From positions 59,892,001-59,956,000 of the forward strand of contig OX597818.1 of NCBI GenBank assembly GCA_951406725.2: a stretch of DNA of 64,000 bases, given 5' to 3'. The stretch is from Octopus vulgaris (taxonomy: Eukaryota). Below, piece after piece: positions 15,801-57,456 of the stretch. Each line of letters starts with the position of its first letter. The stretch's first letter is position 1. A program made the position numbers and the translations under genes. The notes beneath the pieces were generated by a model that saw only the letters and a list, made by a program, of their open reading frames with translations, had not been told where the DNA came from and searched no databases.

Positions 15801-17083
15801 TCAGGTCATTAAGAAAGAAATGCCTGATTTTTAACCGAAAGTTTATTTTACTTCATCTCAGCAAAAAGCAATGCAGTTAATCAAAGTATGCACCTAAATT
15901 ATCAACAATATTTTGCCATTTTATCGGTAGCTTGTTTATGCTGGCAGCGAAGAATTCTGAAGAGCAAGAGGTGATCAAACCACCAAAGGCTGTTTTTGCA
16001 TCTTCTTTCAGACTTGAAGTTTTTGCCTTGCAAAAAGTTGTCTAATGCTTGGAAAACGTAATAACCAGTTGGCGCAAGGTCTGATGAATATGGTGGATTA
16101 CAGATTACTTCAAAGTTCAGTTCCTGTAGTTTGAGTAGAGTTCTTTGTGCAACCTGTATGTGGTCGAGCTGTGTCCTGTAAAAGATTCGGCCTGTCTCTA
16201 TTGACCAATCTTGGTTGTTTAATTTCAAGTTCATTCATCATTTCATTCAGTTGGTTGATGTATACAACCGCTGTCATTGATTCATCTGTTCTCATGAAGC
16301 TGTAGTGGATGACACCAGCGCTAGACACGCAAACACACACCATTAGCTTTTTTGGTGAATATTCGGTTTTGGATTTTTTTTTGTCACTTCGTCTCTATCC
16401 AGCTACCGTGCAAAACGCTTGCTATTGTTGAAAAGAATCCAGTTTTCATTACACGTACCAATACGATGCAAACATGGTTCGCTTTTATGTCGTGACAGCA
16501 AAGAACAAGTTTCAAGACGACGCGTCATTTGATGCTCGTTCAGTTCGTGTGGTACCCACTTGTCCAACTTCTTGAACTTGCTGATTTGCTTCGGATGGTC
16601 CAATGCAGTCGGAATCAAAGCATCAAGCCTTGCTACTAACTCACGCGTAGTTTGAGATGTATCAGCTCACACTACAGTTTCTAGCTCATCATCCACTTTG
16701 GTGTCAGTTCTACCACGGGTCTGATTTTCAAGAGGAGAGTCACCAGACCGGAACTTCTCAAACCATTGGCGTACAGTGCATTCATTTGCCACATCTTCAC
16801 CAAACACTTCATTGAGGTTTCAAGCTGTCTGGGATGCATTGGTTCCACGACGGAACTCATATTCATAAACAACACGAATTTTTTATCTATCGATGGGTTC
16901 ACAAAATATGATGTACGAGAGACAACTCACAATATAATCAGACATCATGAATTGCATTTCGAAAAGTGATGATGTAAATCTTCAATATTGTAAAACAAAA
17001 AACTGTCAGGATAAAACATTAGACTTAACTTTTGTCAAACTTGGTGCATAAGAAAATCGGACGTTTCATTCTTAACAAAATGA
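15801..17083 (-). mobile_element. Mariner transposon, full length (~1.28 kb), decayed transposase
   Basis: Minus-strand motifs WFEKFRSGD, KWVPHEL and PYSSDLAPTGYYVFQALDNFL (YSPDLAP). Degenerate TIRs TCAGGTCATTAAGAAAGAAATGCCTGATTTT / AAAATCGGACGTTTCATTCTTAACAAAATGA. Confidence 0.92.
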
Positions 17084-42908: not shown

Positions 42909-43116
42909 GGGTATATTCTTATATATAGCTTCACGAAACTGATAGGTTGGATTTGATCTGCATAGTTTCCTTAGCAATAATTCTAAGACTAGAAACTCTG
43001 TTTATCAATGTAACATTACTATAGGTAACTCTTCGTCTCAGTTGTCTAAAAGAATATCTAACCATTATTCTACATTTATACATATCAATAAACGCAACAA
43101 TACTGAGCTAAATATT

Positions 43117-43731
43117 TTAATTTGGTCTCTAAAGGAACATATTAAACAATACATTTTGGAATGGAAAATTCTATCTAGATCCTTCCCATATGACAAGGGT
43201 AAATCTTTTTATCCGCTCTGTAATGAAGAGCTATTTTTCATCCTTTTCTCAAAGAATACTTAATAATAAATTAATTTGGTCTCTAAAGGAACATATTAAA
43301 CAATACATTTTGGAATGGAAAATTCTATCTAGATCCTTCCCATATGACAAGGGTAAATCTTTTTATCCGCTCTGTAATGAAGAGCTATTTTTCATCCTTT
43401 TCTCAAAGAATACTTAATTAATAATAAATTAATTTGGTCTCTAAAGGAACATATTAAACAATACATCTTGGAATGGAAAATTCTATCTAGATCCTTCCCA
43501 TATGACAAAGGTAAATCTTTTTATCCGCTCTGTAATGAAGAGCTATTTTTCATCCTTTTCACAAAGAATACTTAATTAATAATAAATTAATTTGGTCTCT
43601 AAAGGAACATATTAAACAATACATTTTGGAATGGAAAATTCTATCTAGATCCTTCCCATATGACAAAGGTAAATCTTTTTATCCGCTCTGTAATGAAGAG
43701 CTATTTTTCATCCTTTTCTCAAAGAATACTC
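43117..43731. repeat. Four-copy tandem repeat (154-158 bp) inside the Penelope fragment
   Basis: Units start TTAATTTGGTCTCT at 43117, 43271, 43429 and 43587; near-identical. Confidence 0.95.
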
Positions 43732-44111
43732 TTGAAAAGCGTTCAAAGAACGCCTTTATCGTTGTTAATAATGGCAAAAACATACCTTTAGTGCCTATAA
43801 GTAATTTCTACCAATCTATAAAATTCTACCTTTAACTATCTTCTAACATTTTATTCCCAGTACATATATCTATATCCACGCTATTAAACTTTATTCCCAT
43901 TCATATATCACATTATATTTTTCCACTCTTAATTTTCTGTTAATGTCTTTCTTTCTCCTCCTTCTCTTTCTCTAATTTGCCTTTGACGTTACATCTATTA
44001 ACGGTCTTTCATAAAAATAACTTGATAGCATTCTCCTTACATCATTAATTTACTTACGCTGTAAAAAACATTCGGTTCAAAGTGTTTATTGATGTGTTTC
44101 GTTCTTTTTCT

Positions 44112-44196
44112 CCCCTGACGAGATAATTGCATTGTTTCATAACAGTTTTATTCTCTCCGGAATAATCTCAATGCTTTCTCCGAAACATATGTTAAA
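44112..44196 (+). ncRNA. Hammerhead-like motif of the Penelope element, stem I decayed
   Basis: CTGACGA (44115), stem II GCATTG/CAATGC, then GAAAC-ATAT-GTT; same ACATATGT stem III as the motif at 29-106. Confidence 0.55.
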
Positions 44197-44301
44197 AGTA
44201 TAAATGATTTGAATCACACCTGCGTTTGACTTCATTTCTTGATTTCTCCATGTTACACAAAATCATTTCACTTAACCCTGGAATTACAACCTTTATAATT
44301 A

Positions 44302-54023: not shown

Positions 54024-54404
54024 TGCTGCTGTTGCTGTTGAGAGAAGCGATTTTCCTTTCCAGAGCACGCAAGATCACGCTTCTTTAGTGGGAAAAGTCC
54101 GAAACGTGGTCATTTGCTATTCGTAAGACCCGCAGAAGAGACATCGAGAGCATCGACGGATAGATGAATGCGCATCCAGGCTCAACGGTTGCGTAGGAAG
54201 TTGGGTACAAGAAACAAGAAGAAAGTGTGAGAGAAAGTTGGGGCGAAAGAGTACAACAGGGGTCGCCACCAACCCCTGCCGGAAGCTCGTGGAGCTTTAG
54301 GTGTTTTCGCTCAATAAACACTCACAACGCCGGTCTGGGAATCGAAACCGCGATCCTACGACCGCGAGTCCGCTGCCCTAACCACTAGGCCATTGCGCCT
54401 CCAC
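54024..54404 (-). mobile_element. SINE family C, tail type 1
   Basis: Reverse complement of 24914-25295. Confidence 0.9.
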
Positions 54405-54416
54405 TTATGTATATAT

Positions 54417-54716
54417 ATGGCCTAGTGGTTAGGGAAGCGGACTCGCGGTCGTAGGATCGCGGTTTCGATTCCCAGACCGGGCGTTGTGAGTGTTTATGGA
54501 GCGAAAACACCTAAAGCTCCAAGAGGCTCCGGCAGGGGATGGTGGCGATCCCTGCTGTACTCTTTCACCACAACTTTCTCTCACTCTTTCTTCTGTTGGC
54601 CTGCTCGCTTAGCCAGCGGGGTGGCGTCATTTGAAGGCTAAAACAATGTGAAGCACATTGTGACCAGCGATGTGTAACAACATCTGATTGCCTGGTCGGT
54701 CACGGTAATCACGGTG

Positions 54717-55010: not shown

Positions 55011-55076
<66 letters not shown>

Positions 55077-55220
55077 AAAGCAATTAAGATTCAAGTCAGT
55101 TCTAATGAATTCACTTGAATGCGGTACTTAACTTAGATGCACCAGAAAACCATATGGTGTTAACCATACAATAATGTGGGGTGATTATAAACGAGAAAGA
55201 AGCAACAAGAATGGATTAGT

Positions 55221-55311
55221 TTTTAGTACAATTGTTTCATACAAAGACAGGCTTTATTAAAAGTTGCAAATATTGCAGCAGATAAAAGTGTCCCGTACTC
55301 ATCAGCTAAAA
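55221..55311 (-). ncRNA. Type I hammerhead ribozyme (left arm)
   Basis: Reverse complement of 56523-56613. Confidence 0.82.
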
Positions 55312-56522
55312 CACATATGAGTTCTCCAAACATCTTAGTGGGTGAGGCTACACTCATGAAGTATCGGAGATAATTTCATAAAAAGCAAATTCAGGTTGTA
55401 AACAGACTTCCAAAGTTCTTTAATGATGATGCACAGTCTTATCACAGGTTTTAAAAAAGCTTATTAGCTTCACAGAGAAAGTGAATCAATCCATAGTGTT
55501 GGTGCAAATTTCCAGAGATATGAGGAGGTATTTCATACTCACAGACGATGAATCTATCCATGGTTAATCCACAATGAGGTGGGTATAATTTCATGCTATA
55601 TGATAAGATACTTGTCACACTACTGTTCTCTTCACAAAACTGCTATGTTAGAATTTCTAAAGGCTGAAGGAATTTTGTGGAGCAAAGAAAAGAAAAGAAA
55701 AGAGAAGAAAATAAAAAAGAAAAGAAAAAAAAAAGAAAAAAGAGAAGAAAAAAAGAAAAAAGAAAAAACGCCCACATAGAGTATACTGTGACAACTGAGA
55801 GGGAAGGGGTCACAGGTAACCCCCTACACAGAAGAAGTCTCTTAAATTTGGAGACAGTCAGACTGGCTTAGAATTTGCAGGAATCTAAGAATTATAAGGA
55901 GAATATTATTTTTGACCAGTATACAGCTATTAATTGCCAATCTGACGGAGCTAAAGCAGATATGAGAATCTAAAGAGAGAACAAGGGAAGGGATAGAGGG
56001 GTCAAAGGCTATCATTAGAGGGAAATACATTAAGAGAAATAAGTGCAATACTAGAAGTAGGTCATTTAATTTATTTATTTATTACTGTTACTGTTTATAT
56101 TGTTGTTGTTACTGTCTATACATTGACAGTCAATTTTCTTTTCTTTTCTTTGCTCCACAAAATTCTTTCAGCCTTTAGAAATTCTAACATAGCAGTTTTG
56201 TGAAGAGAACAGTAGTGTGACAAGTATCTTGTCATATAGCATGAAATTATACCCACCTCATTGTGGATTAACCATGGATAGATTCATCGTCTGTGAGTAT
56301 GAAATACCTCCTCATATCTCTGGAAATTTGCACCTACACTATGGATTGATTCACTTTCTCTGTGAAGCTAATAAGCTTTTTAAAACCTGTGATAAGACTG
56401 TGCATCATCATTAAAGAACTTTGGAAGTCTGTTTACAACCTGAATTTGCTTTTTATGAAATTATCTCCGATACTTCATGAGTGTAGCCTCACCCACTAAG
56501 ATGTTTGGAGAACTCATATGTG

Positions 56523-56613
56523 TTTTAGCTGATGAGTACGGGACACTTTTATCTGCTGCAATATTTGCAACTTTTAATAAAGCCTGTCTTTGTATGAAAC
56601 AATTGTACTAAAA
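56523..56613 (+). ncRNA. Type I hammerhead ribozyme (right arm)
   Basis: TTTTAG-CTGATGA-GTAC...GTAT-GAAAC-AATT-GTA-CTAAAA. 6 bp stem I, long stem II, palindromic stem III ACAATTGT, predicted cleavage after 56607. Confidence 0.85.
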
Positions 56614-56641
56614 ACTAATCCATTCTTGTTGCTTCTTTCTC

Positions 56642-56704
<63 letters not shown>

Positions 56705-57456
56705 TGATGAGTACTTGCATGTTGTTTTTGAGCCTAGGATCAGCCCTGGTCCTGAAAACTTATGATCAAAGACGTTCCAGTTCTGGCCAACCAACCGTTA
56801 TTCAAGAACAACATTGTTTAACATGTTTTGTTTTGTTTGTTTTTCTCTTCTTCTTCTTCTTGTTTTCTTTCTTATCGCTTGGTTGTGATTTGCAGATGAT
56901 GCGCTCGCTGTTTTTAGCAGATCGAGTTTCTTCGTTGTCATGCGCATGTATGATGCATTCCGCTGAAAGGAAAAGCGAAAAACATAGAAATCAAGAACTG
57001 TATACAGATACACAGACAGAACGTGGGGGAGGGAATGATAAACAGAGAGAGGGGGAGCAACAGAGAGAGAGAGGAGGGGGGAGATGGAAGCTATCCAATT
57101 CAAGCTGATGAGTGGAAAGTGCCAGGTTAATAAATTATAAATTCGCTGTTACAGTGGATTCCTGTGACGTTTTTACTGACATGTATGAAGATAAATGGAT
57201 GTATTGAATCTAACAACTTTCCCAAGCGTATTAAAAGTTTAAATTGAGTAGTGGAATGGTTTAAGCCAAAAAAATTAATACATAAATAAACTGAAGCATA
57301 TGGCTTCAGATTCGGAATATACTTCAGCTCACGATAGTTGCTGACTCTCAAGAAATCCCAAGTGAACGCTACAATGGAATACAGTTCGCATGTCTGGAGT
57401 TGTGCGAATGTTAATCGTACGCATACGAACATTAAAAAGAAATTCAACCCTGATGA

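Follow-up and report, generated by a model that had tools for sequence, protein, structure and literature searches.

Within the 64-kb stretch of DNA analysed here (the window), the sequence between positions 55074 and 56643 is best explained as the product of one recent insertion event of a Penelope-like retroelement (PLE) of the endonuclease-bearing type, a reading to which we give a probability of roughly 0.86. The insertion would consist of a 1056-nt minus-strand copy, truncated at its 5′ end, and of a 510-nt inverted copy placed head-to-head with it; both hammerhead-bearing 3′ ends point outward. The element combines PLE features, namely a type I hammerhead near the 3′ end, strong 5′ truncation and, in the assembly, an inverted copy. 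An insertion architecture of this type is already described for PLEs. The inverted-pLTR PLE origin put forward in a preliminary description of this DNA is supported by the depth gradient reflecting 5′ truncation, by ends lying in (TA)n, by the one-sided tail, by a hammerhead of the dimer type and by published precedent.

The left arm (55191-55701) and the right arm (56134-56643) are 99.2% identical in an alignment of 511 bp. They differ by three substitutions, at positions 55500, 55604 and 55669, and by one 1-nt indel near position 55453, as expected from the arms of about 510 bp with some four differences announced previously. The left arm, whose sense strand is the minus strand, corresponds to the 3′ part of the main 5′-truncated copy. 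The right arm, on the plus strand, is the inverted 510-nt copy, also 5′-truncated, and its end is the commonest 3′ end of the family. The arms are separated by 432 nt. The 'spacer' itself (55702-56129, minus strand) is made of further 5′ non-coding sequence of the family, cut off at position 56129 in this copy. An 85-nt pyrimidine tract (55684-55768, minus strand), U-rich in the sense orientation, overlaps the inner end of the left arm, and the inverted copy terminates within this tract. A 13-nt palindrome (56122-56134) with 6-bp arms and a 1-nt centre covers the junction, where nucleotides 56130-56133 resemble a templated filler separating the main from the inverted copy.

On its left side, the element does not stop at the arm. 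A tail of 117 nt (55074-55190, minus strand), with two predicted hairpins, follows the arm on its 3′ side. This tail belongs to the main copy only and has no mirror on the right side of the element. Beyond it, a (TA)30 tract (55014-55073) is likely one half of the target microsatellite. On the right side, (TA)16 (56643-56674) is followed by (AG)14. As judged from the positions of these (TA)n tracts, the full insertion is 1.57 kb long and thus larger than the 1.45 kb (55191-56643) initially delimited. The preliminary description had recognized the palindrome, and also the non-coding nature of a spacer of about 430 bp. It had overlooked that the target is (TA)n, that a 117-nt tail is present and that the family includes the spacer. 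No target-site duplication could be measured inside (TA)n. Neither other copies of the element in the 64-kb window nor tandem units other than simple repeats in the element were found.

The family to which the element belongs was studied by placing contigs on positions 55075-56140 at 85% likeness, which was achieved for four of the 24 listed runs. Runs X1 and X2 are from organism A, X3 is from organism A and was guessed to be RNA, and X4 is from organism B. The numbers of contigs placed were 1295 (X1), 2486 (X2), 37 (X3) and 1328 (X4), which points to an extremely abundant family in at least two organisms. In X1, X2 and X4, summed depth peaked at 55183-55326. From bin 55183-55218 to bin 56083-56118, it dropped 391-fold (X1), 737-fold (X2) and 620-fold (X4), summed contig depth being distinct from copy number and subfamily divergence below 85% being able to steepen the gradient. 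Depth also fell 2.7-3.0-fold from the arm end to the tail. A second step was observed just upstream of the hammerhead (55312-55360), where depth dropped 8.3-, 4.7- and 2.1-fold; from this step, many family copies may be short stubs made of the hammerhead plus the end.

Junctions within the contigs define the family further. Loose ends at position 55186, running into (TA)n, were found in 32 contigs of X2 and 8 contigs of X4; the commonest end of the family is therefore the end of the right arm. Contigs crossing position 55190 join arm and tail in other copies (five listed records), showing that the tail is family sequence. The spacer is multi-copy as well, with a depth of about 0.4-12 thousand in the DNA-type runs. 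The match to the family stops at position 56129 in one listed record per run, four in all, and three of these records carry 22, 41 and 41 further letters. Because these three continue, the family extends beyond this point, and the present copy was cut at 56129. Together with the depth gradient, this continuation shows that the spacer is family sequence and that the present copy is 5′-truncated. Overall, the gradient reflects the polarity of 5′-truncated retrocopies with minus-strand sense. The letters of the window at positions 55480, 55812 and 56058 were not found in X1 contigs, so that the copy under study may be missing from those runs. Contigs of X1, X2 and X4 also contain a go-back joint from 55528 to 55428, which suggests a subfamily with an internal duplication of about 100 nt. 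A literature search found no description of the family; Repbase and Dfam were outside this search, so the family is possibly already catalogued.

No coding remnant was detected in the element. Neither the ORF listing nor Pfam revealed traces of an RT or an endonuclease. A profile of the PLE-type endonuclease, constructed with 150 relatives, gave a best E value of 0.42 in the element versus 1.5e-60 for a control remnant. The linked RT/GIY-YIG ORF whose search had been proposed is thus not found inside the element by any of these three approaches. At least 824 nt of non-coding sequence lie upstream of the hammerhead core, and the parent therefore had either a long 3′ UTR or no ORF. Absence of the coding part is expected, since the element is a 5′-truncated tail. 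Judged from its sequence, which holds no coding remnant, the element is filed as a PLE-type insertion and not as an autonomous PLE; this copy encodes nothing and is probably dead.

Each arm contains one CTGATGA core, at +56529 and at -55305. In the main copy, the type I hammerhead spans 55221-55311 (minus strand), with the core starting from 55305, GAAA at 55238-55235, a predicted cut after 55227 and a loop II of 46 nt. In the inverted copy, it spans 56523-56613 (plus strand), with the core at 56529-56535, GAAA at 56596-56599 and a predicted cut after 56607. In both, stem I has 6 bp and stem II, which includes G-U pairs, has 7 bp; they also share the GAAA motif, a UA cut site and a palindromic stem/loop III, ACAATTGT. 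They are the only descriptor matches in the 64-kb window. As a control for chance, 5000 Markov resamples of the arm were searched. None of the 5000 matched when stem I was at least 6 and stem II at least 4, a setting at which the real arm matches, and 3 of 5000 did so at the loosest setting of the descriptor. The predicted cut site lies 36 nt from the end of the arm. On the left, however, it is 153 nt away from the true end, because the element extends to position 55074. The earlier proposal of intact hammerheads about 36 nt from each end thus stands for the core and, on the right side, for the 36-nt distance to the arm end; it fails for the left distance, and 'intact' applies to the core only.

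The hammerhead of this family is atypical and missed by Rfam, which gave no hammerhead match in the element at either threshold. The constrained hammerhead fold has an energy of -7.2 kcal/mol, as compared to -15.8 for the free minimum-energy fold, indicating that the fold of the monomer is unfavourable. The z-score of the fold of 56505-56643 is -0.02. Among motif-only matches in public collections (prokaryote and metagenome), none of 17 had both stems, and further pattern scans for relatives gave no match apart from a viral one, which lacked the upstream core. Sequence variation within the family was considered from the 40 variant rows listed out of 110, 14 of which fall within 55218-55312. 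Four of these 14 listed variants are in stems, eight in loop II, two outside and none in the core. All four listed stem variants keep pairing with the partner base of the window, three of them converting a G-U pair to a Watson-Crick pair. On this partial view, the pattern of the listed variants fits with selection on the hammerhead motif in the family. Hammerhead motifs with a short stem III are described as dimer-dependent and slow in two studies (PMC4209133, PMC6765202), and the Anolis PLE hammerhead as protein-dependent and dispensable for insertion in vitro in another (PMC11167929). The present motif is of the short-stem-III type, for which cutting is predicted to depend on a second sense copy.

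The architecture of the insertion was compared with that of known systems. In endonuclease-bearing PLEs, an inverted 5′-truncated copy often adjoins the 5′ end, and a tail of 30-40 bp is often present on one end (PMC8557442). Palindromes have been found at inverted PLE junctions and interpreted as traces of self-priming (PMC3846280). The element shares with PLE insertions in general the head-to-head inverted copy, the tail on one end, the palindrome at the inverted junction and the AT-rich target (PMC8557442, PMC3846280, PMC11167929). It differs from them by its 117-nt tail, instead of 30-40, and by having no direct pLTR tandem (PMC8557442).

Among PLE clades, the closest likeness is to Hydra, whose members target (TA)n and carry canonical hammerheads (PMC8557442). 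One example, Repbase Penelope-13_HM, has a TA target and the same layout as the element: its inverted copy occupies nt 1-966, one hammerhead lies at position 102 in antisense and the other at 2944 in sense orientation. The element resembles Penelope-13_HM and the Hydra clade by its (TA)n target, by the 5′-truncated inverted copy at its 5′ end and by hammerheads on both strands near both ends (PMC8557442). Its CUGAUGA core, the G-U first pair of stem II and the short palindromic stem III are also Hydra-like, and the clade is known from Octopus (Hydra-1_Obim). Insertion into (TA)n is, however, not diagnostic of the Hydra clade, since it is also typical of Neptune and Naiad. The element differs from the Hydra clade in having no ORF and at least 824 nt of non-coding sequence upstream of the core. 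The RT and endonuclease motifs of the clade (RWK, DKT, CxCX5C, no CCHH) fall in a part that this copy lacks. Loop II is 46 nt long in the element, in contrast with 3-10 nt in all 26 Hydra rows listed, and the hammerhead of Hydra-1_Obim differs from that of the element (PMC8557442). No match to the Octopus Naiad or Hydra entries published there was found. Five short motifs of the element were not found in its supplement, in which line breaks could hide a match.

The Naiad clade was rejected, as it has no canonical hammerhead whereas the element has a full core and three stems. The 3′ ends published for Naiad_Obim and Naiad_Ovul look unrelated by eye, and the motifs were not found. Animal non-LTR retrozymes, as presented in PMC7229834 and bioRxiv 10.64898/2026.07.22.740005, are similar to the element in being non-coding, in carrying a type I hammerhead and in a proposed PLE-dependent mobility. 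They are, however, short head-to-tail tandem units of about 300 bp, whereas in the element two truncated copies of different length, from a unit of more than 1 kb, are joined in inverted orientation. Since the element contains no head-to-tail tandem of short hammerhead units, assignment to non-LTR retrozymes was discarded.

Among the routes by which a PLE could have produced this structure, two-ended priming in the (TA)n tract appears the most likely, with somewhat better than even odds. A PLE protein supplied in trans would cut both strands of the tract and each cut end would prime reverse transcription. The first cDNA, begun 153 nt beyond the hammerhead cut site, would reach position 56129. 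The second would start at the usual site of the family, 36 nt downstream of the cut site, beside a UAUA able to pair with the target, and would stall in the U-rich tract; end joining with the 4-nt templated filler would then connect both cDNAs. A 4-nt TATA match to the target is present beside the 36-nt start site of the inverted copy. In PMC11167929, a PLE protein is shown to cut AT-rich DNA on both strands and to extend each of them; RT starts at two internal sites, which delimit the tail. Since the two start sites can be read from the element together with its truncation point and the filler at its junction, it is a usable case for how PLE inversions form; otherwise, the single locus is of little weight, as it cleanly illustrates an insertion pattern already known for PLEs.

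The main alternative is that only one cDNA was made. After ending at 56129, this cDNA would have folded back on itself, which would create the junction palindrome, paired again with its own A-rich tract and served as its own template as far as position 55191, where the endonuclease would resolve the product to the same final structure. In line with this, the centre of the junction palindrome (56128) lies 1 nt from the truncation point; positions with a 6-bp-arm palindrome are 3 of 1569 in the element, and by our own estimate the chance of finding one within 5 nt is about 2%. Moreover, the T tract from which the inverted copy starts is complementary to the A tract of the cDNA itself, and self-priming is argued for in PMC3846280. 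Both arms also carry A at position 55480 whereas X1 and X2 contigs read G throughout, as expected if both arms derive from one template. Fold-back accounts for the palindrome and the tract as well as two-ended priming does. Against fold-back, the end of the inverted copy coincides exactly with the commonest 3′ end of the family, so that an additional precise cut is needed. Priming at an RT start site accounts for this end directly (PMC11167929). We therefore regard fold-back as a possible but clearly less probable origin of the element, although it takes a sizeable minority share among the PLE routes alone.

During assembly, such a palindrome could also have arisen if a high-copy repeat was mirrored or joined chimerically, and PMC8557442 cautions that these structures disturb assemblies. 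The inversion is present in the assembly, and its junction is absent from the listed contigs of the four runs; in the contig placement, the joint would map inside the masked tract 55675-55769. However, the arms show four differences, and at position 55500 the right arm has the letter of the family, whereas the left arm does not. In addition, the right arm stops at an independently observed biological end with its own flank beyond it, and the junction contains templated filler. These features make an artefact improbable.

Long near-perfect inverted terminal arms, TA flanks and lack of coding capacity would also suit a MITE-like or fixed palindromic unit moving in one piece, whether as a DNA transposon with 511-bp TIRs or as a fixed retro-unit. 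The polar depth gradient and the presence of a tail on one side only argue against such a unit. So do the continuation of the family past 56129 with other sequence, the three listed records differing at the junction, and the lack of variants in the hammerhead core among the 40 of 110 rows listed. This reading is very improbable, and the assignment to a DNA transposon family that would have contradicted the preliminary description does not apply. As remote is an older insertion in which gene conversion, or selection for functional dsRNA, maintained the similarity of the arms, a reading that would suit the near-private letter at 55480 common to both arms: this sharing is expected from a single template, near-fixed differences in the unpaired spacer and tail are few (55151, 55812 and 56058 among the 40 of 110 rows listed), and the divergence of spacer and tail from the family is in line with the 0.8% between arms. 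Returning to a single insertion, this 0.8% difference suggests that it is young; of the recent insertion or gene conversion invoked earlier, the former is retained and the latter is not required.

Transcription through the element would have consequences at the RNA level. The predicted fold of a minus-strand read-through transcript contains 507 arm-arm pairs, in agreement with the duplex of about 500 bp masking the hammerhead that had been proposed. Such a transcript is predicted to carry a single sense hammerhead, buried in this duplex. The element would yield long dsRNA only if transcribed. According to PMC5625713, the number of near-perfect dsRNA loci is exceptionally high in octopus, and Penelope copies of lizard undergo heavy editing. 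Like the Xenopus Harbinger and lizard Penelope repeats that serve there as examples of palindromic ADAR targets, the element is a self-contained, near-perfect inverted repeat that would form dsRNA without a neighbour. By analogy, ADAR editing of the element is plausible; Dicer processing, also proposed previously, would be a further possible fate of such a duplex. In X3, guessed to be RNA, A>G and T>C changes were found at 10 places each, as compared to 11-13 each in the DNA-type runs, and contigs cannot show editing, so that these counts speak neither for nor against it. In RNA runs X15-X20, only 0.07-0.08 of the words were present. If many family copies are inverted and transcribed, they could help to explain the dsRNA potential and hyper-editing of octopus (PMC5625713). 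A broader proposal is that the parent is a non-autonomous PLE parasite of more than 1 kb with very high copy number, a long-loop hammerhead missed by standard descriptors and a tail three times as long as usual, and that its inverted insertions are a major unrecognised source of the near-perfect dsRNA behind octopus hyper-editing; we consider this unlikely.

An exon scan for a host gene gave no convincing exon. About 250 nt past the element, at 56850-56966 (plus strand), a pyrimidine tract and TTTGCAG precede a CpG-rich frame of 23 codons with a stop. This frame is a possible terminal exon; if real, the hairpin would lie near a splice acceptor. The candidate peptide of 25 residues (56889-56963) had no Pfam or PDB match.

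Another PLE-related sequence, which adds to the case for a PLE origin of the element, occurs in the window at 42930-44300 (plus strand), where the 3′ remnant of a Hydra-like PLE ends in (TA)n. With the C-terminal part of its endonuclease, HMMER retrieved 506 relatives at E≤0.001, including P0106, which has RT, DKT and RWR motifs; a word-based protein search, unlike the full HMMER search, gave no match. The remnant contains 3.9 repeats, at 98%, of a 158-bp piece. A decayed hammerhead-like core (44115-44193) also consists of two halves 60 nt apart, its stem III is palindromic, and (TA)n lies about 118 nt after its GAAA. PLEs of this host, which its SINEs and microsatellite load suggest to be an octopus, may be characterized by a long loop II. 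As a direct parent of the element, this remnant was rejected, its DNA similarity score of 41 being comparable to that of shuffles (40.1 ± 6.7).

About 500 nt to the left of the element, at 54217-54594, lies a smaller inverted pair with 115-nt arms at 91%. It is centred on a short TA run and its inner part looks tRNA-derived by eye. Finally, fragments of a Mariner/Mos1-type transposase are present on the minus strand at 1102-1374 and 16113-16394 (Pfam HTH_48, E 1.6e-7; Transposase_1, E 2.1e-13).
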